Positions 1,328 to 61,917 of a stretch of DNA of 64,000 nucleotides are shown one piece after another (the first letter of the stretch is position 1; each line of letters begins with the position of its first letter). The notes under the pieces are model-generated. The model was not told the origin of the DNA, did not search any database, and saw only the letters and a program-made list of their open reading frames with translations. This DNA is from an uncultured Chloroflexota bacterium (GTDB lineage Bacteria; Chloroflexota; Anaerolineae; 4572-78; J111), in the NCBI GenBank assembly GCA_937864185.1, contig CALMIS010000275.1, positions 13,125 to 77,124 on the forward strand, given 5' to 3'. The translations under genes and the position numbers were made by a program.

Positions 1328-2346
1328 CGCAAGATAAAGCCGTCGCGCAGCGGATCAGCCGGATCGATCAAAAATTCATGCCGGCCAGTGATGTGGGCCG
1401 TGCCTTCGATTTCAGGAATGATGGCCGGGTAGGGTCCAAAGCGGCTGCTCTTGATCACGCGGCCGGTGAAGCGGCTACCGATAATGCTCTCGACGACCAG
1501 CGGCTGGTGAAGCTTGATCTCACCGCGGGCGTAGTGAATGGCCAGTCGCCCACTGACGCCCGTGCCGGTGGGCGAGCGATCAACCTCGCCCTCGGCGAAG
1601 ACGCAGACATTGCGGCTGTCGCCCCCGGCCAAAGGTGGACCGATAAAGATTGTGCCGTACAGGAAGCCTAAATCTACCTCCAGGGGATGCTCGATGGGTC
1701 GGCTGGCGATTACGGCTTGTTTAATCGCCGTACCGATTTCGATCAGAGCTCGAAAATTCTGAGGGGTACAGGTCAAGCCCACCGCTTCAGCCTGGACGTA
1801 AACGTAGAAAGCCCCGCCGAACGCTAAATCATAGTGAACCCGGCCTAGCCCGGGCACCTCAACCGTCTCAGCCAACGCCACCACAAAAGATGGGACATTG
1901 TGAAAGTAGACGCTTTTAACCTGTCCAGCCACCACCCGGGCGTGGGCTGTCACCAGTCCGGCGGGCGTATCGATTTTGACGGTGGTTTCCGGCTCCTGGA
2001 GCGGGACTAAGCCGGTTTCGACCACCAGCTTGGCGATGGCGATAATGCCGTGCCCGCACATAGAGCTATAGCCCTCGTTGTGCAGAAACAGCACCCCCAG
2101 GTCGGCTTCAGGCGAGACAGGCGCGGTGATCAGACAGCCGTACATATCGGCGTGACCGCGTGGTTCCCACATCAAGGCGGTGCGCCAATGATCAAAGTAC
2201 GCCTTGGCATAACGGCGGCGCTCCAGAATAGTGGTGCCGGCAAGCGGCGGTAACCCCTCGAGGATGACACGCAGGGGTTCGCCGGCGGTGTGCAGATCAA
2301 TTGCCGTGATTTTGAGCCAATGAGCCGGAGGAGACCATTCATTCAT
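1324..2346 (-). CDS. proline racemase-superfamily enzyme with a Cys/Thr catalytic pair (trans-3-hydroxy-L-proline dehydratase type)
   Basis: The first catalytic motif SSMCGHG retains Cys. The second motif reads DRSPTGTG, where racemases/epimerases have DRSPCGTG. I prefer the ATG at 2346 (GGTGAGG SD 4 nt upstream) over the GTG at 2355. Confidence 0.8.
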
Positions 2347-2357
2347 TTGCCTCACCG

Positions 2358-4754
2358 TTAGGCAGTTTGGGAAACGATTTCGAGATCGCGACTGCGCTCT
2401 TCGCCGACGCTTTGAGACGGGGCACAGACCGGCAGCAGCACGTGAAAGGTGCTGCCGGGTAAATTCTTCTCATCATGTTTTTCACTTTCTACCCAAACCT
2501 GACCGCCGTGGGCCACGATGATGCCGCGGGCGACCGCCAAGCCTAAGCCAGGTCCGCCGCCCTTGAATTTGGTTTCGCCGGAAGAGTGGAGGGCAACCTG
2601 ACCGGTTTGGTAAAACTTTTCAAAGATCTGTTCATGATGTTCGGGGTCGATGCCGATGCCGCTGTCGCGCACGAGAATTTCGACGAGGGGGACCTCGCCG
2701 GGCGGCTCGAGGAGTTGACCGATAACGCTGATCTGGCCACCATCAGGCGTATACTTGATGGCGTTGACGATCAGGTTGTAAAACACCTTTTTAAGCAGAT
2801 CAGGGTCAGCTTCGATAGCCGGAAGCGCGGTGAGGTCTGTCAACGCTAGGTTAAGGTGACGCTCTTGTTTCACCTCAGCAAAAGTGTCGATGATCTCCGC
2901 TATTAACCGGTGCAGTTCAAGCTTCTCGAATTGAGGCCGGAGGACTTCGGTATCGATGCGGGCTACATCGAGCATGGCGTTGACGATTTGGTGGAGGCGG
3001 TTTACCCCGGTGTTGATTCCGCCCAGCAATTCAGCCGCTTGCTGATCCTGGCCAATCGGCGACATGAGGCTTAGGATCTGGCTATAACCTTTGATCACTG
3101 ATAACGGAGTCCGTAGCTCATGGGAGATGACGTTGATAAAGTCACTTTTGGTTTGGTCCAGTTGCTCAAGTAGCTTATAGGCTTTGTTGAGTTCGGCGGT
3201 GCGCTGCGCTACTTTTTGCTCCAGATGTTCGTTGAGCTGGGTGATCTCATCGTACAGATTGGCGTTTTCCAGGGCAATGGCCGCCTGACCGGCAAAAGCG
3301 AGAGCCATGGTGACATCATCCATCGTGAAGGCGTTACACTCGCGCCGAGTCAGCGCCATCATGCCTAAGACCTTGCTGTGCGAGATCAGAGGCACACCCA
3401 GCCAGGAGTGGTAAAGTGGGCGATCGCTACTAAGAGGCCACTCTTTTTCACCGGTCACATCGTTGATCAGAACCGGGCGGCGGGTCTCGGTAATGCGCTG
3501 AAAAATTTTCTCCGAGCCAAGGGGAGTCCCCGACGAGTTGGCCTGTTCTTGACCGGGGGCACTGCGCTGGGCCAGGCTGTAAAGGTCGTTCTCTCGCTGA
3601 AGAAGAATAGAGCCGTGCTCGTACGGGACCACCATAGCCAGCTCTTTGAGGATCCGCTTGGGTACCTGCCGGGTGTTGAAGCTACCGGATAAGACCCGGC
3701 TGGATTGTTCCAAAGACTCCGCTAGACGACGGCGGCGCTGCTCGACTTTGTAAAACTCAGCGTTGCGGATAGCAATGGCAATCTGGTCCCCCAGCGCTTG
3801 CAAGGCCAAAATATCATCATCGCTGAAGGCAGCAATGGCTTGGCTCATCACTTCCAAGGCGCCAATGCTCTCCTGACCCAGACGGAGGGGCAATGTCAGA
3901 ATTGAGCGAGCGGCAGGTAAGTCTTGGATCGCCAGTTGTTTGGTCGCGGTGGAGATGTCCTCGATGAGATGGTAGATGCCTTGATGGCCTACCCAAACAA
4001 CCGTGTAATCAGCTTGATGAATAGGGACGCTGGTGCCACGGGGTGGTAGACTCAGTTCTCGCGTGCCGGCGCCGGCCTGTAAAATCATCAGGCCCCGCTC
4101 TTCTTCCATCAGCCAGATACCGACAAAGTAATAGCCAAATTTAGATTGAATGAGCTCAACCACCCGATTCATAAGTTCATCCAGATCGAGGATGGAGGTC
4201 ACCTCGCGGGCAAGTTCAGTGCTAGTTTCAAGCTGAATAGTGCGTTTGAGTAAGGTGTTGTTCATCTTCTCAAACAGCTCGGCTTGCTCAGTGACGTCTC
4301 GAGTCAGCTTTCTGAGCCGGAGGTGCGTGTTGAGCCGGGCCAGGACTTCATCGAATTGCAAGGGCTTGATGACGTAATCAATTCCGCCGACTTGGAAGCC
4401 TTTGACCTTGTCGCTGGCTTCAGCCAGAGCAGTCATGAAGATGACCGGGATGTCACGAGTTTGGCGCTCGGCTTTGAGCTGCCGGCAGGTTTCGAAGCCA
4501 TCGATGCCCGGCATCAGCACATCAAGCAAAATAATATCTGGTTGGACGTAGAGAGCCTTTTGGAGGGCACTCTCGCCACTTCGAGCGACCAGGATGCGGA
4601 AACCGTAGCTTTTAAGATAGTTGGAAAGGACGCCCAAGTTGGTGGGATTGTCATCGACGATGAGAATAGTATGGCTGTAGTTCGTATCACCACCGGTTTC
4701 CGTACCGAGACTAGCCTCAGTTGCCGTTGCGGCTTCGTTTCGAGCGTGTTCCAT
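2358..4754 (-). CDS. hybrid sensor: N-terminal receiver + 2 GAF domains + HisKA/HATPase histidine kinase
   Basis: Receiver motifs ILIVDD...LLDVLMPGIDG...KP. Two GAF ends (IAIRNAEFY, IALENANLY). H-box [14 protein letters not shown] and G-boxes DSGIGI, GPGLGL. The ATG at 4754 is used; the track start at 4823 lies deeper inside the upstream gene. Confidence 0.85.
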   Translation of the reverse strand: MEHARNEAATATEASLGTETGGDTNYSHTILIVDDNPTNLGVLSNYLKSYGFRILVARSGESALQKALYVQPDIILLDVLMPGIDGFETCRQLKAERQTRDIPVIFMTALAEASDKVKGFQVGGIDYVIKPLQFDEVLARLNTHLRLRKLTRDVTEQAELFEKMNNTLLKRTIQLETSTELAREVTSILDLDELMNRVVELIQSKFGYYFVGIWLMEEERGLMILQAGAGTRELSLPPRGTSVPIHQADYTVVWVGHQGIYHLIEDISTATKQLAIQDLPAARSILTLPLRLGQESIGALEVMSQAIAAFSDDDILALQALGDQIAIAIRNAEFYKVEQRRRRLAESLEQSSRVLSGSFNTRQVPKRILKELAMVVPYEHGSILLQRENDLYSLAQRSAPGQEQANSSGTPLGSEKIFQRITETRRPVLINDVTGEKEWPLSSDRPLYHSWLGVPLISHSKVLGMMALTRRECNAFTMDDVTMALAFAGQAAIALENANLYDEITQLNEHLEQKVAQRTAELNKAYKLLEQLDQTKSDFINVISHELRTPLSVIKGYSQILSLMSPIGQDQQAAELLGGINTGVNRLHQIVNAMLDVARIDTEVLRPQFEKLELHRLIAEIIDTFAEVKQERHLNLALTDLTALPAIEADPDLLKKVFYNLIVNAIKYTPDGGQISVIGQLLEPPGEVPLVEILVRDSGIGIDPEHHEQIFEKFYQTGQVALHSSGETKFKGGGPGLGLAVARGIIVAHGGQVWVESEKHDEKNLPGSTFHVLLPVCAPSQSVGEERSRDLEIVSQTA

Positions 4755-19652: not shown

Positions 19653-19829
19653 CTATAATTTTTCTGTCTGTTGCTCTTCGCCTGGTCGCATGCTGATCAA
19701 GATTTCAGTGATGGTCACGACCGAGATAGCCACAGCTTCTCCTGAAGTTAGTTGGTGAGCCAAAAAATTAAGCGCAGGCTGATGACCGTGAAAATGGTCA
19801 ATGAGAACGTCAGTGTCAATCAGTTTCAT
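19653..19829 (-). pseudogene. truncated PIN-domain (VapC-like) toxin remnant
   Basis: 58-codon ORF MKLIDTDVLIDHFHGHQPALNFL...SVVTITEILISMRPGEEQQTEKL*. It has the N-terminal PIN acidic motif (DTDVLID) but stops at less than half of normal PIN length. No intact antitoxin ORF lies upstream. Confidence 0.55.
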
Positions 19830-20406: not shown

Positions 20407-20871
20407 GTGGCTGTTTTCTACCTGGATACTAGCGCCCTGGTTAAACGCTACGCCTCAGAGAAAGGCTCCAATTGGGTCATCACTCTGACCGATCCCCCCG
20501 CGGGTCACGACATTTTCATCAACCGCCTGGCCGGACCGGAAATGATTGCTGCTATCTTTCGCAAGATGCGAATGGGCGAGCTTTCTGGCCCAGAAGCCTC
20601 ACAGTTGGCCCAGACCTTTCGATCTGATTGGCAAATCCGCTATCAAATTTTAGGGGTGACTAGCGCCATTGCTGAGCAAGCTATGCACTTGGCTGAAAGT
20701 CACGGCTTACGTGGGTATGATGCCGTTCATCTAGCCACTGCGTTAGCCTTGCAACAAATTCGGCAATCAGCGGGATGGTCGCCTCTTACTTTTGTCTCCG
20801 CTGATAATGACCAACTGCTGGCAGCTCAGGCGGAAGCTCTACCCACCGAAAACCCAAATAGTTACTCGTAG
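20407..20871 (+). CDS. PIN-domain toxin (VapC family)
   Basis: FYLDTSALVKRY (first acidic residue), GYDAVHLATALAL and FVSADNDQL motifs. 154 aa. Confidence 0.8.
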   Translation: MAVFYLDTSALVKRYASEKGSNWVITLTDPPAGHDIFINRLAGPEMIAAIFRKMRMGELSGPEASQLAQTFRSDWQIRYQILGVTSAIAEQAMHLAESHGLRGYDAVHLATALALQQIRQSAGWSPLTFVSADNDQLLAAQAEALPTENPNSYS

Positions 20872-21220
20872 ACTCGCTGAAAGGCTCGCCCACCTGGGAT
20901 GAATTTAGCCAAGTGACGTGGGAAGCGATTGAGGCTGGGGCTAAGGCTAATCAACCTGGTTTTAAAACAGTCATGCGTCGATGAAGGTGACAAAACAATG
21001 CTGCGTCAAGTTCCGCTGACAGATTTTCTATCGTTAAGCAGCTATGCGCCGGCCCATACGCCGAACGTCGTTCCGGCTACCACCATCAAGCCGCCCCATT
21101 TCGCACCGTTGGCTGCCTGAGCAATTCGACTCCTAAGAGTGACTGATCAAAACAAGAGCAAAGTCAATGTCTAATCTGGGTGGACGGCTATAGCCGTTAC
21201 TACGAACTAATAGGGTTGCA

Positions 21221-21877
21221 TTACGCCACCGCCCTAAAGCCCAGCGCCTCCAACTGTTGAGGCCGGTCGGCCAGGGCCAGCTTGGCCACGGTCCTGAACT
21301 CGGCTAGCCACTCGTCCAGCTCGTCAAGGACAGCGTTCCGGTCCGCGGTGGCTTGCTGCGCTTCGTATTTTCCTCGGGCCTGGGCGCTGTGGAGATCGGC
21401 CACCTGCTGCACCAGCCTCTGGCCTTCATAGAGTTTCTCGGGGGTGAGGTTGAAGCGAGCCAGCGCCGCGACAAGCTCAGGATCGTTCGGCGCGTTGTCG
21501 TAAAAGACGGTAGCCTGCCCTAACCAGCCGGATAGGCTGGTTTTTTTGCGCTCGTTCAGGGCCAGCGCTTCGTCTTTTTGGGGCATTCGTTTGATGGCCA
21601 GCCGGGCCAGGGCCCGGTGGGCGGTGTAGACCTTGTCCGCGGCGGCAAAGGCCTGGTGCAACGCCTCGGTCGCCTGGTATTGATCGCTGTACTTGCTTTG
21701 CTGTCTGGCCAACAGCTGTTTGGCTTGGGCTAATAGCCTTTCCCCCGCTTCCAGTCGCGCTTTATCGTAGCCATACCGGGCCACCGCCTCGGCAATCTCC
21801 GGCGATTGTTGGGCATTGTCCAACGCCACGCGCCCCACCAACAAAAAATCATCAATTTTACGACGTAGTTCTGACAT
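21221..21877 (-). CDS. all-helical hypothetical protein with an internal two-fold duplication
   Basis: 218 aa. Residues about 22-105 and 128-215 align (SPEIAEAVARYGYDKARLEAGERLL vs DPELVAALARFNLTPEKLYEGQRLV; ...KY..Q.QAT... in both). AGGAGA SD upstream. It lies 35 nt downstream of the repeat ORF. Confidence 0.6.
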   Translation of the reverse strand: MSELRRKIDDFLLVGRVALDNAQQSPEIAEAVARYGYDKARLEAGERLLAQAKQLLARQQSKYSDQYQATEALHQAFAAADKVYTAHRALARLAIKRMPQKDEALALNERKKTSLSGWLGQATVFYDNAPNDPELVAALARFNLTPEKLYEGQRLVQQVADLHSAQARGKYEAQQATADRNAVLDELDEWLAEFRTVAKLALADRPQQLEALGFRAVA

Positions 21878-21912
21878 GGAATTTCTCCTGGGTTGAGATA
21901 CGAGTAAGTTGT

Positions 21913-22248
21913 TTAAGTCGGTTTAAGTATAACATAGGGCGGCGATATGTTCACGCGGTCAGGCCTCATTTTTAGCCGGTCACCAACCATTTTCAGGTAG
22001 TCAGGAACCGTTTTCAGCCGGTAAGGACCCGTTTTCAGACGGTTAGGGACTGTCTTCAGATGGACAGGCACGATTTTTAGCCGATCATCAGCAATTTTCA
22101 GACAGTCATAGGTTATTTTTAGGGGATCAAGCGTGGCTGTCAGGCAGTTAGGAGTGGTTTTCAGCCGGTTAGATACGGGGTTCAGAGTGTCAGGAGTCAT
22201 TTTCAGGGGGTCAGGCACGGTTTTCAGGCGGTCGGGAATGGTTTTCAC
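21913..22248 (-). CDS. heptapeptide-repeat protein (14 x K-T-V-P-D-R-L-like units), existence uncertain
   Basis: It is the only open frame across the 21-bp repeat array. Units differ by synonymous changes (Thr ACC/ACG/ACA, Arg CGC/CGG/CGT, Leu CTG/CTA) while Lys, Pro, Asp and Leu positions are kept. GTG start with no clear SD. Confidence 0.4.
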   Translation of the reverse strand: MKTIPDRLKTVPDPLKMTPDTLNPVSNRLKTTPNCLTATLDPLKITYDCLKIADDRLKIVPVHLKTVPNRLKTGPYRLKTVPDYLKMVGDRLKMRPDRVNISPPYVILKPT

Positions 22249-22250
22249 AC
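21955..22250. repeat. tandem array of 14 degenerate 21-bp units
   Basis: The + strand TTTTCAG (or a variant) recurs with an exact 21-nt period at 21969, 21990, 22011, 22032, 22053, 22074, 22095, 22116, 22137, 22158, 22179, 22200, 22221 and 22242. Confidence 0.9.
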
Positions 22251-22408
22251 AGACGACGCCGTTTTGCCTAAAAACCTGGGTCGCTACACCGCTCTAATGG
22301 GGCTGGTTTCCCCACCGTTAATCTTCTACAAACCCTTTATCTTTACAATAAGGATCATAAGTAGGATGGCGAGCAGAGCGATCTCTGCTCGCGTAAGGAG
22401 TTTGTTTT

Positions 22409-23152
22409 ATGAGTGACGCTCAAACTACGGCTGAGGATCAACTCGATCAGGCCGGTGGTGGCCCGGCGGTTTCTGCCGCCGAAGAGCGGTCAGCCTCCCC
22501 CGTGGCGACTGATTTTGACTGGGGCGTCTATGCCGATGCTACCATGGCCGGTCTGGCCGTGTTGGTGCCGATTCCGATTTTGGACTGGCTTTTAGAGGAG
22601 ATTTTCCGGCGGCGCATGCCGCAAGCCATTGCTCGCCAGCGGGGTCAAAGACTGAGCTCGGCGGTGGCGGCGGAACTCAACAAGTCGAACCGCCGGTGGT
22701 GGCTGACCTGCCTGCTGCTGCCGGTGGTGGGCTTGTTCTGGTTAATCAAGCGGATTTCGAAGAAGATCCTCTACTTTTTGACGGTTAAAGAGGCCACGGA
22801 TCAGGTCAGCCTGTACTGGCATCAAGCCTTTCTGATGGACTATATGCTGCAACAAGGGCATCTTGAGGATGAACAATCGGCCGCAGCCGCCCGCCAGGCG
22901 ATGTGGCGGGTGATTAAGAACAGCCACCGCAGCCCGATCTGGCAACTGGCCCAGCAGATCGTGAGCAGCAGCCGGCACGTCGCGCGATCGCTTCTAAAGT
23001 TCCGGCGCGGTCACGAAGATGAGCTGGTGCAGGCTAATAAACAGCGGATGCGCAGCAGTTGGCAGAAGTTCCGCGGCTACTTCGAAACGCTGGTGCCGTT
23101 GTATGATCAGGCTTATCTGGCGGAAGTGGAGGCCAGGACGGCTACTCAATGA
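22409..23152 (+). CDS. hypothetical membrane protein
   Basis: 247 aa. Acidic/Ala-rich N-terminus and two hydrophobic helices (AGLAVLVPIPILDWLL; WWLTCLLLPVVGLFWLI). AAGGAG SD upstream. No family recognised. Confidence 0.55.
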   Translation: MSDAQTTAEDQLDQAGGGPAVSAAEERSASPVATDFDWGVYADATMAGLAVLVPIPILDWLLEEIFRRRMPQAIARQRGQRLSSAVAAELNKSNRRWWLTCLLLPVVGLFWLIKRISKKILYFLTVKEATDQVSLYWHQAFLMDYMLQQGHLEDEQSAAAARQAMWRVIKNSHRSPIWQLAQQIVSSSRHVARSLLKFRRGHEDELVQANKQRMRSSWQKFRGYFETLVPLYDQAYLAEVEARTATQ

Positions 23153-23393
23153 CCAAATCTTCGAGGTTTAAGCGGGCTGACCCGGCCGGCCGGTAGCGAG
23201 CCGCGGCAATCCGAGCCAAAAAGGGGCGATCGTGCTTGAGGCGATAGTTAAGCCAGTCGTCTTCATCGGCAAAACCTACCAAGACGCCCACCGGTTTGCC
23301 GTGCCGGATGATGACGATATTTTCTTGCTCGGCCAGACGAAGGTACTCGGACAGATCAAGCTCGATTTCTGAGATAGGTATTTTTTTCATCAT
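23142..23393 (-). CDS. Phd/YefM-family antitoxin, apparently without a partner toxin
   Basis: 83 aa. The N-terminus (IPISEIELDLSEYLRLAEQENIVIIRHGKPVGVLV) matches the Phd/YefM fold pattern. The downstream position is occupied by the convergent gene, with an 11-bp overlap. Confidence 0.65.
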   Translation of the reverse strand: MMKKIPISEIELDLSEYLRLAEQENIVIIRHGKPVGVLVGFADEDDWLNYRLKHDRPFLARIAAARYRPAGSARLNLEDLVIE

Positions 23394-28469: not shown

Positions 28470-28642
28470 GGAAGGTTGGAAGGTTGGAAGAGTGGAAGGA
28501 TGGAGGATTGGAGGGATGGTTGGAAGAAAAGAGGAGTGCTAAAGCGAAGCTTTGGCGGTAGTGGAGAAAGGATGGAGGATTGGCGGAATGGAGAGATGGT
28601 TGGAAGAAAAGAGGAGTGCCGAAGCGAAGCTTTGGCGGTAGT
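28470..28642. repeat. GGARGNWT octamer array followed by two tandem ~80-nt units, each ending in a conserved hairpin
   Basis: Octamers at 28470-28520. The 48-nt blocks 28515-28562 and 28595-28642 are identical except for two positions. Hairpins GCTAAAGC-GAA-GCTTTGGC (28538-28556) and GCCGAAGC-GAA-GCTTTGGC (28618-28636). Confidence 0.85.
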
Positions 28643-28689
28643 TGACAAGGTTGGAGGACTGGAAAAGACGGCTGCTCGTTTAGATGAGC

Positions 28690-59907: not shown

Positions 59908-61917
59908 TCACTCGGGCACTGTTACCGCGCCGATGATCAAGGCATCCCCCCAACTGACCCGGGCTGAGTCGCCCTCAACAACGGGTAACCGCCGGCCATC
60001 GGCCCAGGTATAGACCGCCAGGTGCAGGTAGTAATCTCCCGCCGCCAGATCTAGCGGCAGAGACAAACAAGGAGACAGAGGGTGCCTTTCACCGGCAACG
60101 GCTGAGGCTAAGCCTTCATCATGTTGAGCCACAACCGCATTCCCCCCATTCACCAGATGAACCCCGTAGGAATAAGTAGCTTCTAAATCGACCAAAGCTA
60201 ACCACTCAAGCTCAAGGCAAATTGACTCACCGGGCTGAGCCGCTCGATAAAAGAACGGCGCCCCCCTGTAGCGCAGCTTATCGCCGAAGTAAAAGGTGAG
60301 CGAATCGCTTTCGCCGCGGTCAAAGCGGTAAAAGAGCATATAACCGGTGCTGGCCCGGTAGCCGATGTGCCGGCCCCGGTCAAGCTGAGCCACCGCTTGC
60401 CAGGTTTCGCCGATGTTGTTGGGCATCATCACCCAGATGGAGGGCGCGGGCGGGAGCCGTTCAATGAGTTCGGCCGTCTCGGCCGGCCGGTAAAACCGCT
60501 GAGAGAGATCGAGGGTTGAGGTGTTACGCAGCCCTAGTTTGCGATCGTAGTAAGCTTCCATGCTATAAGGGCGGACAATTTTGACCAGGGAAAGGTCCTC
60601 CGGTTGCCGGGCGGCCAGCACCGCGCGGACCACATCGGCCTGCCAGGGCGAGCGTGGCGGCCAGAGCCGGTTGTAGCTGTCGATATTCGTATAGACAAAC
60701 AGAGCTAGCAGAATCAGCATCAGGGGTTGCCACCATACCCAACGCAGCGCGTAGGCGATTAGTAGAGCGACAGCCGGTAGAATAGCGATGAGGTAGCGGA
60801 GTTGGTACAGGGGGGCCAGCCACGTATTCAAGGCTAGCACCACCAGCGGCGTGAGCAGCAGCCACAGCGCCAGCAGCAGGACCGGTCGCCAGGTGCGTTT
60901 TAGCCGGGGCAAGGCTCCGCCCAGGAGTAAGGGACTTAACAGCCACCAGCCCGCCCCGCCACTCAAAACGAATAGCAGCCAACTGATCGTGTCCCAGCTC
61001 GTGGCTTGGGGCAAAGCCAACGGGCCGCCGGGATGCATCTGGACCTGGTTGAGCCAAGCCCCAAACCAGGGCAGGTAAAGCAGCCCTCCTACCCCGACCG
61101 GCCCTAACCAGGCCCCCAGCCGTCGAGGCCGGCTCATCGCCAGGTGCAGCCCATGTCCCAACGGAATCAAGGCCCCATAATAGTGCGTCAGCGGCAGGGC
61201 CGCAATGGTCAAGCCATAAACCCCCGAGCGAATCCAGTTAACCTGCCAACTTTCCAACCGAAAATGAAAAATTAAAAAGGAAAAATGAAAAAATTCTCTC
61301 AGTCTACCACTTTTCCAGCCCTCCAACCCCACCCTCCTCCAGCCCTCCAGCCCTCCAATCCTCCAACCCTCCAATCCTCCAACCTTCCAACCCTCCAGTC
61401 TTCCCCCCTTCCCCCCTTCCAACCACCACCCATACGCCCACGTCGACAGTACCGCCAGAGCCAGCAGCAGCGAGTACATCCGAGCTTCGCCCATGTAGTA
61501 GAGCAGAAAGCTATGCGTGCCTAGCAGCAAGGCCGCCGCTAGCCCGGTGCGCCGATCGAACAGGACCCGACCAAGCCGGTACGTGGCGCTGATGCCCACC
61601 AGCCCAAAGAAGACAGATGGTAGCCGTAGTCCAAAAACCGACTCGCCCACCAGCCGCACCCAGACGTGCAGCCCCAAAAAGTAGAGCGGTGGATGCACAT
61701 CGGCCGCTACCCGACTGACGGTTTCGGTCAACGTGCCGCGCGCTACCCAGAGCGACCAGACTTCGTCGTGCCATAGTTCGGCCTGGTCGAGATAGGGCCC
61801 CACCAGCCCAAACGAGAGCAGAAGCGCGGTCAGTAATAGATAATGTGGCCAGGGCTTGAACTTTAGCTCCACCAAAATACTGTCTGTTTTGAAAAGGTTG
61901 CGAACAACCGGGGCCAT
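59908..61917 (-). CDS. GT39/ArnT-like polytopic glycosyltransferase-family membrane protein carrying an in-frame simple-repeat insertion
   Basis: Multi-TM N-terminal region (...DVHPPLYF...EARMYSLLLAL...) plus a roughly 250-aa C-terminal soluble domain. I use the ATG at 61917. The first 112 codons of the track ORF overlap the DUF2293 gene and look like a GC-rich shadow. Confidence 0.6.
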   Translation of the reverse strand: MAPVVRNLFKTDSILVELKFKPWPHYLLLTALLLSFGLVGPYLDQAELWHDEVWSLWVARGTLTETVSRVAADVHPPLYFLGLHVWVRLVGESVFGLRLPSVFFGLVGISATYRLGRVLFDRRTGLAAALLLGTHSFLLYYMGEARMYSLLLALAVLSTWAYGWWLEGGKGGRLEGWKVGGLEGWRIGGLEGWRRVGLEGWKSGRLREFFHFSFLIFHFRLESWQVNWIRSGVYGLTIAALPLTHYYGALIPLGHGLHLAMSRPRRLGAWLGPVGVGGLLYLPWFGAWLNQVQMHPGGPLALPQATSWDTISWLLFVLSGGAGWWLLSPLLLGGALPRLKRTWRPVLLLALWLLLTPLVVLALNTWLAPLYQLRYLIAILPAVALLIAYALRWVWWQPLMLILLALFVYTNIDSYNRLWPPRSPWQADVVRAVLAARQPEDLSLVKIVRPYSMEAYYDRKLGLRNTSTLDLSQRFYRPAETAELIERLPPAPSIWVMMPNNIGETWQAVAQLDRGRHIGYRASTGYMLFYRFDRGESDSLTFYFGDKLRYRGAPFFYRAAQPGESICLELEWLALVDLEATYSYGVHLVNGGNAVVAQHDEGLASAVAGERHPLSPCLSLPLDLAAGDYYLHLAVYTWADGRRLPVVEGDSARVSWGDALIIGAVTVPE
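61258..61420 (-). repeat. about a dozen phased GGAGGNWT octamers followed by five T-rich heptamers (minus-strand sense), inside the GT39-like ORF
   Basis: The + strand reads ...CCAGCCCTCCAGCCCTCCAATCCTCCAACCCTCCAATCCTCCAACCTTCCAACCCTCC... preceded by GAAAATGAAAAATTAAAAAGGAAAAATGAAAAAATTC. It has the same octamer-then-heptamer layout as 24860-24938. Confidence 0.85.

Follow-up and report, generated by a model that had tools for sequence, protein, structure and literature searches.

An array of 21-bp tandem repeats as the probable non-coding partner of a PQLLE-family gene in an uncultured Chloroflexota bacterium

The window analysed here (the whole 64,000-nt stretch of DNA from an uncultured Chloroflexota bacterium) carries an array of short tandem repeats between two divergent genes encoding proteins of 218 aa and 247 aa, and the flanking genes are as the original prediction, made from the letters of the window, had described them. 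The features of the locus are the following.

21221 to 21877, minus strand: gene for a 218-aa protein of the PQLLE family (NF052641, E 5.6e-65) with the C-terminal motif PQQLEALGF.
21878 to 21925, minus strand: short leader of the 218-aa gene, with a Shine-Dalgarno sequence, AGGAGA, read from the sequence at 21884-21889.
21926 to 21953, minus strand: promoter-like TGAACA-16-(TG)TTATACT, noted also as TGAACA-16-TGTTATACT, a consensus match only, which lies at the gene-proximal edge of the array and abuts its last unit.
21954 to 22248, minus strand: 21-bp repeat array of 14 units with the sense-strand consensus CTGAAAAC-CGTT-CCTGAC-CGC.
21913 to 22248, minus strand: 111-codon ORF (L-K-T-V-P-D-R repeats) with a GTG start and no Shine-Dalgarno sequence, judged to be an incidental open frame.
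22249 to 22408, no strand assigned: spacer of 160 bp between the array and the divergent 247-aa gene, with only weak sigma-70-like matches.

The locus has toxin-antitoxin surroundings, in which Pfam identifies a PIN toxin (20407-20871, with an upstream 137-aa partner) and a Phd/YefM antitoxin (23142-23393); metH-like and other housekeeping-type genes are also found in the window. A short PIN-like ORF lies at 19653-19829, and no toxin is obvious beside the Phd/YefM antitoxin. Searches of the array-neighbouring genes against Pfam, NCBIfam, PADLOC and PHROGs returned only PQLLE for the 218-aa gene, with PIN and Phd/YefM further out.

The fourteen phased repeats that had been predicted are borne out: the units lie head to tail on the minus strand, each is exactly 21 bp long, and the array matches itself at 0.62 when shifted by 21, 42 or 63 nt but only at 0.29-0.34 when shifted by 20 or 22 nt. 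Each unit is composed of conserved blocks at positions 1-7 and 13-18 (per-position entropy 0.42 and 0.81, respectively) and variable blocks at positions 8-12 and 19-21 (1.36 and 1.31). A second motif had been placed at an offset of 8 nt within the unit, and two CTGA/TCAG cores spaced 13 and 8 nt apart do occur in each. The pattern CTGAAAA-N6-CTGAC, with up to two mismatches allowed, has 12 matches in the array and 18 in the whole window, where 5 are expected, and none of 100 shuffles attained 18. Scanning of 20800-23300 with the covariance models of Rfam 15 gave no match at E<=1.

Only one of the six frames is open across the array, namely the 111-codon ORF running from 22248 to 21913, and its GTG start and the lack of a Shine-Dalgarno sequence were correctly anticipated. 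It had been read as a possible protein built of K-T-V-P-D-R-L heptapeptides. A genuine 111-aa protein of the form (L-K-T-V-P-D-R)x14, co-transcribed with the PQLLE gene, would fit the position of the ORF, which shares the strand of that gene and stops 35 nt ahead of it; a sister array described below, which has the same unit and lies elsewhere in the genome, is open in that frame too, and the ORF was called as a gene automatically in one (L096) of two other same-species assemblies. We nevertheless regard such a protein as very improbable. When the consensus unit was allowed to decay in simulation at the observed per-position rates, the frame stayed free of stops in 56% of trials, and when the columns of the units were shuffled it did so in 88%; the open frame is thus expected by chance and uninformative. 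Synonymous variation between units had been put forward as a sign of selection on a peptide, a claim that fails, since the variability is block-wise: entropy at codon positions 1, 2 and 3 is 0.78, 0.82 and 1.06 in the window array and 0.31, 0.65 and 0.33 in the sister array, where the second position is the most variable, and neither array has codon periodicity in its unit variation. The protein search proposed for the 111-aa sequence found no similarity, with no homologue among 5.8 billion proteins, no significant match in Pfam or NCBIfam and nothing in PADLOC or PHROGs.

Frame-breaking changes in relatives, which the original prediction had itself named as an argument against coding, are present. 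In the closest related array (L064, unit CTGAAAATGGTTGTGCAGCCG), whose neighbouring protein is 61% identical to that of the window, a TAG interrupts the frame equivalent to the window ORF and a different frame is open; a TAG is present in L067 as well. Among 30 related arrays, eight lack any open frame in sense, and open frames are about as frequent in antisense (21 of 30) as in sense (22 of 30). The mean periods of related arrays, 20.3 (61/3), 20.5 (41/2), 21.3 (64/3), 21.5 (43/2) and 22 nt, are not multiples of 3, and the only substitution between strains within the window array (GAC -> GGC) is non-synonymous in the frame of the ORF. The 111-aa ORF is therefore a by-product of a repeat unit that lacks a stop in one frame and is not a gene. 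In annotation, the long ORFs to which 21-nt arrays of this kind routinely give rise, on one strand or the other (111 and 171 aa in the genome of the window, as many as 277 aa in L072), are spurious and are not to be called as genes. The other reading offered at the outset, a phased non-coding array, came nearer the mark, except that the array goes with the family of the 218-aa gene and does not belong to the divergent region as such.

The 218-aa protein matches the NCBIfam family NF052641, "PQLLE family", with 219 bits (cut-off 80) over profile positions 3-210 of 211. An AlphaFold2 model computed from a 15-sequence alignment (pLDDT 93) is all-helical and has two homologous halves, each with a helix of about 56 residues that is preceded by a small helical cap. 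Foldseek comparison of the model with PDB and BFVD, like a sequence search of PDB, found nothing below E=0.08 and only generic coiled coils, and the PADLOC scan yielded a single weak coiled-coil match (E 0.0045). No Nop domain, helix-turn-helix, other DNA-binding fold or ToxN-like fold was detected by Pfam, in the AlphaFold2 model or with Foldseek. Members of the family are mostly acidic (pI 4.7-5.5), which, together with the lack of a DNA-binding fold, argues against classical recognition of duplex DNA. The same genome encodes four proteins of about 250 aa (L058-L061, on contigs C326, C304, C305 and C70) with two PQLLE-like halves and a Gly/Asn/Ser-rich linker; these paralogues match NF052641 at about 1e-14, under the family cut-off.

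An array with a period of 20-22 nt lies upstream of a PQLLE-type gene at about 35 of 41 assessable loci. Same-genus copies of the 218-aa gene have an upstream array of 20-21-bp period in 8 of 10 cases, each with another unit; three of the four distant ~250-aa paralogues in the genome of the window have their own upstream array of 21-22 nt, as do both metagenome homologues with enough upstream sequence and 22 of the 25 assessable loci in other phyla. This last set comprised 27 loci from a scan of one genome per species, with Tandem Repeats Finder (21/42/63 nt) detecting arrays at 16 of the 27 and lag-21 autocorrelation adding six degenerate ones. The hosts belong to Chloroflexota, Bacteroidota, Cyanobacteria, Desulfobulbaceae, Rhodothermales and the candidate groups KSB1 and Neomarinimicrobiota, and include by name Anaerolineales, Ardenticatenaceae, Prevotellaceae, Cytophagia, Cyclobacteriaceae, Flammeovirgaceae, Chitinophagales, Labilibacter marinus, Ca. 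Electronema and other Desulfobulbaceae. The pairing of array and PQLLE gene is thus conserved in at least five named bacterial groups and two candidate divisions. Among the arrays found with Tandem Repeats Finder the distance from array end to start codon is about 60-600 nt, mostly 60-300 nt. In a control set of about 102 kb, selected without regard to PQLLE, no other array of such a period was present.

What is conserved is the pairing and not the sequence of the unit; units drift freely while the period holds near 21 nt. The DNA pattern of the window's unit is absent from 40 relatives, and the genome of the window alone holds at least five different array units (C275/C232, C65, C304, C305 and C70), none of them with a coding signal. 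A sense-strand core, GAAAA-N-TT...ACCG, or roughly GAAAA(Y)..RTT(CC)...ACCG(C), is common to several arrays across phyla, among them those of the window, L044, L064, L068, L070, L071, L074, L076 and the Electronema group. No conserved neighbour genes were obvious in ORF maps of 22 loci, and a literature search on PQLLE and 21-bp repeats found no paper describing the array-gene pairing. Taken together, the window array is best explained as the non-coding partner of the PQLLE-family gene downstream of it on the same strand, the two forming a two-part module. The orthologous same-genus loci L044 and L045 have in addition a small hairpin 60-30 nt ahead of the PQLLE start (AAGCGCTGAAAGCTT in L044, AAGCGCTGGCCGCTT in L045), followed by a conserved ATTGGGTTTTTA just 5' of the Shine-Dalgarno sequence.

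Could the array be a fast-evolving minisatellite without function, produced by slippage where the spacer tolerates it and simply carried along with the gene? Turnover of unit sequence between paralogues is nearly complete, which would suit such an origin, as would the higher-order periods: super-periods of 63 nt (three units) are about as common among the arrays as those of 42 nt (two units) and so look like ordinary unequal exchange. A 42-nt super-period mirroring the two halves of the protein was also considered and rejected, 63 nt being about as frequent. The genome is moreover rich in other short tandem repeats, and it contains a solo array, G000:C232:21317-21649 (L004 1300-1628, minus strand), of 15-16 copies of CTGAAAAYGRTTCCTGACCRC, the same unit as in the window but younger and more homogeneous, with no PQLLE gene or remnant beside it. 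This explanation is in our judgement improbable, for chance cannot account for a period of ~21 nt at the same position, beside the same gene family, in many groups, and the control sequence has no such arrays. Four genomes preserve the Electronema array unit for unit, and the window array is identical in copy number across three assemblies: two further same-species assemblies have the identical 14 units, the differences between assemblies amounting to the single substitution given above and two more just downstream. The window array is therefore stable over short times. A related strain (window 22252-22290, runs X2 and X4) shares about 93% identity with the window over the divergent 247-aa gene and ceases to agree with it just ahead of 22252; where the array would be expected to start it has a different sequence (loose ends GGGAATGCYGGTCACGGTGAC), which may be another array unit at the same site.

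The solo array is flanked by a GcvT-like gene on one side and a sarcosine-oxidase-like gene, about 400 bp away, on the other, in a spacer rich in repeats; it is open in one frame per strand (ORFs of 171 aa and 122 aa). A near-consensus promoter, TTGACG-16-TATAAT, at about 1750-1790 on the plus strand of L004 is directed from the solo array to the sarcosine-oxidase-like gene, and long hairpin repeats (GTTCGTAGTAACGGCTTCAGCCGTTAAAG...; GTAGGGGCGTAAAATTTTACGCCCCTAC) lie between the two. Octamer arrays of the GGATGGAA/GGAGGNWT type (L004 1012-1130; window 28470-28663 and 61314-61420) constitute a family separate from the 21-mers and are found in spacers of the genome and apparently within one gene too.

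RNA evidence comes from one relative. At the locus of the cable bacterium Ca. Electronema aureum (L085) the array occupies approximately 2296-2402 and the PQLLE ATG is at 2480, and metatranscriptome contigs span all or part of the array into the coding sequence (X11, 2233-3301; X12, 2250-3097; X10, 2051-3297; X14, 2134-2534; X15, 2384-2558; and, from a related strain, X20, 2314-2737). X11 and X12 begin about 50-65 nt upstream of the array, no RNA contig covers 1700-1990, and in run X12 the depth rises four-fold at about 2231-2250, where a lower-depth contig stops at 2231; the contigs are unstranded and the depths are contig-wide means. In this organism the array is thus within the same RNA contigs as the PQLLE coding sequence, which is good though not final evidence of joint transcription, and since the array is transcribed together with the gene in one relative, it may act as RNA rather than as DNA iterons. 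In run X13 an RNA contig omits 68 nt inside and just after the array (L085 2350-2419), between two TCCTGC direct repeats; the omission is not a multiple of 21 and could be a strain deletion, template switching by reverse transcriptase or RNA processing. Four wastewater RNA runs compared with the window gave no match.

We tentatively favour a reading in which the repeats of the window array are transcribed at the head of the PQLLE mRNA and offer evenly spaced binding sites there, and we put its probability somewhat short of even. The array would be transcribed as the 5' leader of the mRNA, and the leader RNA would form a row of regularly spaced sites for a factor that would most economically be the PQLLE protein itself. 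Binding might then serve feedback control of PQLLE synthesis or co-assembly into a ribonucleoprotein, and the constant unit length would correspond to the footprint of one bound subunit. Besides the pairing and the Electronema contigs, this reading is consistent with the strand bias of the arrays, the shared motif being in the gene-sense orientation in most of them and 22 of 30 having more A than T on the sense strand (p=0.016), with promoter-like sites directly upstream of the arrays at L046, L048, L052, L067 and L075, and with the acidic nature of the PQLLE proteins and their lack of a DNA-binding fold. Against it, folding of the window array RNA gave z = -1.4 in sense (not significant) and -2.4 in antisense, with no repeated hairpin, and the existence of a solo array with the window's unit but no adjoining PQLLE gene is not readily accommodated. 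If the window array is transcribed as a leader, its promoter must sit in the 22249-22408 spacer, where only the weak sigma-70-like matches are found, whereas the best promoter-like match of the locus lies between array and gene; L068 is alike, with TTGCCA-18-TATCCT 2 nt past the array. Sigma-70 scoring around 21 arrays gave a mean best score of 7.6 upstream and 7.3 downstream.

Should the candidate promoter at 21926-21953 be real, the window array would at this locus lie upstream of it, at about -35 to -330, an arrangement that suits a role in DNA. In such a reading the array would be a phased operator or upstream element located immediately upstream of the PQLLE core promoter, with its sites two turns apart on one face of the duplex, and cooperative binding by PQLLE or a host factor, or intrinsic curvature, would set PQLLE transcription. 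However the sequence varies, the mean period keeps to 20.3-22 bp, which corresponds to two turns of B-DNA, a length also remarked on by Subirana and Messeguer (PMC8161180), and a single A/T tract is present in most units. Two arrays with a window-like unit seem to tolerate inversion, as L073 1975-2206 (Cytophagia) and L079 2110-2266 (Ardenticatenaceae) appear reversed relative to the gene (GTCGGAACGATAT..; GACCGGTCAGGAACG, TCAGGAATA), an orientation that counts against a leader RNA. We nonetheless consider a DNA-level operator unlikely, though a serious alternative, and favour the transcribed leader over it: the Electronema array is inside RNA contigs, promoter-like sites precede several arrays, motif orientation and A>T skew go with the strand of the gene, and PQLLE is acidic and without a DNA-binding fold. 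Unit sequences also differ among paralogues within one genome, so that a single host factor is unlikely. Several further candidates were discarded. The idea of an anti-Shine-Dalgarno element, with the UCCUG of the units pairing with the CAGGAG of the gene, was dropped, the relevant 4-mers being very uneven (97 sense and 68 antisense over 30 arrays). A CsrB-like GGA sponge, an ECF-sigma promoter array, PhoB-type direct repeats and mimicry of the tRNA T-arm were set aside on sequence alone, their spacings or motifs being unsuitable.

A broader form of the transcribed-leader reading is conceivable, if rather doubtful: PQLLE and its array might constitute a self-contained, previously undescribed RNA-protein module that has spread through many phyla, in which an internally duplicated coiled-coil protein lacking any known nucleic-acid-binding domain binds to or polymerises along its own leader. 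One subunit or half-subunit would then occupy each 21 nt, the constant-size 20-21-nt repeats of bacteria would be explained, at least the PQLLE-linked ones, and solo arrays with the same unit would be targets in trans or sponges.

Among known systems, the type III toxin-antitoxins (ToxIN, CptIN, TenpIN, AbiQ/antiQ) offer one comparison. Their antitoxins consist of near-identical units of 34-45 nt. PQLLE loci resemble them in having a direct-repeat array immediately upstream on the same strand, which in Ca. Electronema alone is seen to be transcribed with the gene, and in being small, mobile-looking, multi-copy modules with a patchy, cross-phylum distribution. By analogy, PQLLE would be a harmful protein kept in check by the repeat RNA once this is cleaved into pieces of 21 (or 42) nt, and partial termination would govern the ratio of array to gene. 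The window locus does lie among PIN and Phd/YefM genes, and at L064 165-215 a strong terminator-like hairpin (GCAGCCCCCCATTTTCTT/AAGAAAATGGGGGGCTGC, then TTTATTTT) with a T-run stands right after the array, about 330 nt before the PQLLE start. Even so there is little probability in this reading. L064 is the only one of the loci examined with a clear hairpin of this kind, and no terminator separates array and gene in the window or at most other loci; the units are 21 nt long and often degenerate (62% self-match in the window), the array RNA has no significant fold, and the weak coiled-coil hit was all that PADLOC returned. PQLLE, an all-helical and internally duplicated coiled coil, resembles neither ToxN nor CptN nor TenpN, and it is no endoribonuclease of the ToxN type. 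Membership of the type III class itself was rejected, protein family and unit size being wrong and the terminator usually absent.

Iteron and centromere-type arrays (R6K and pSC101 iterons; parC of R1 and pSK41) are also head-to-tail, helix-phased repeats of about 20-22 bp, and they too lie upstream of an adjoining gene for a binding protein, as is presumed here. The PQLLE locus, in contrast, has no Rep, ParR, known DNA-binding fold or partner NTPase, and it is chromosomal and multi-copy, with an array that is transcribed in a relative. Replication iterons were rejected on these grounds, the neighbour having neither a Rep domain nor a winged-helix fold and the locus being chromosomal. In TIGR-Tas systems, units of 36 nt composed of two 8-12-nt repeats and two 9-nt variable spacers accompany Tas proteins with a Nop domain (PMC12045711). 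There, as here, long arrays of short repeats that are missed by CRISPR finders adjoin the gene for a small helical protein, but PQLLE arrays have 21-nt units with only 5+3 loosely variable positions, and the protein has no Nop-like fold or Pfam match. We therefore rejected membership of this class also, there being no Nop domain and no spacers.

The closest counterpart is a class of repeats defined by length. Subirana and Messeguer described bacterial tandem repeats of constant size, 20-21 nt (also 40-41), and variable sequence, which are non-coding, occur in many bacterial groups and have a length of two DNA turns, with no function proposed (PMC8161180, which also cites an earlier J Bacteriol paper by the same authors). 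The 2021 paper appears to name no associated gene, as the words intergenic, upstream, adjacent, promoter and hypothetical protein do not occur in it (PMC8161180). With 14 units of 21 bp, where at least 4 copies define the class, the window array agrees with the published description throughout, and the genome likewise holds several families of the same length that differ in sequence and are all non-coding. The window array is thus a new member of a published, functionally unexplained repeat class. It departs from that description in that the arrays here are tied to one protein family (PQLLE, NF052641) and are found in the transcript at the locus of one relative. Repeats of fixed 20-21-nt length that had been catalogued as an unexplained oddity (PMC8161180) can now, for the window array and about 35 others, be attached to a single gene family, and this tie, together with their presence in the transcript of that family in one organism, makes the repeat class experimentally tractable.
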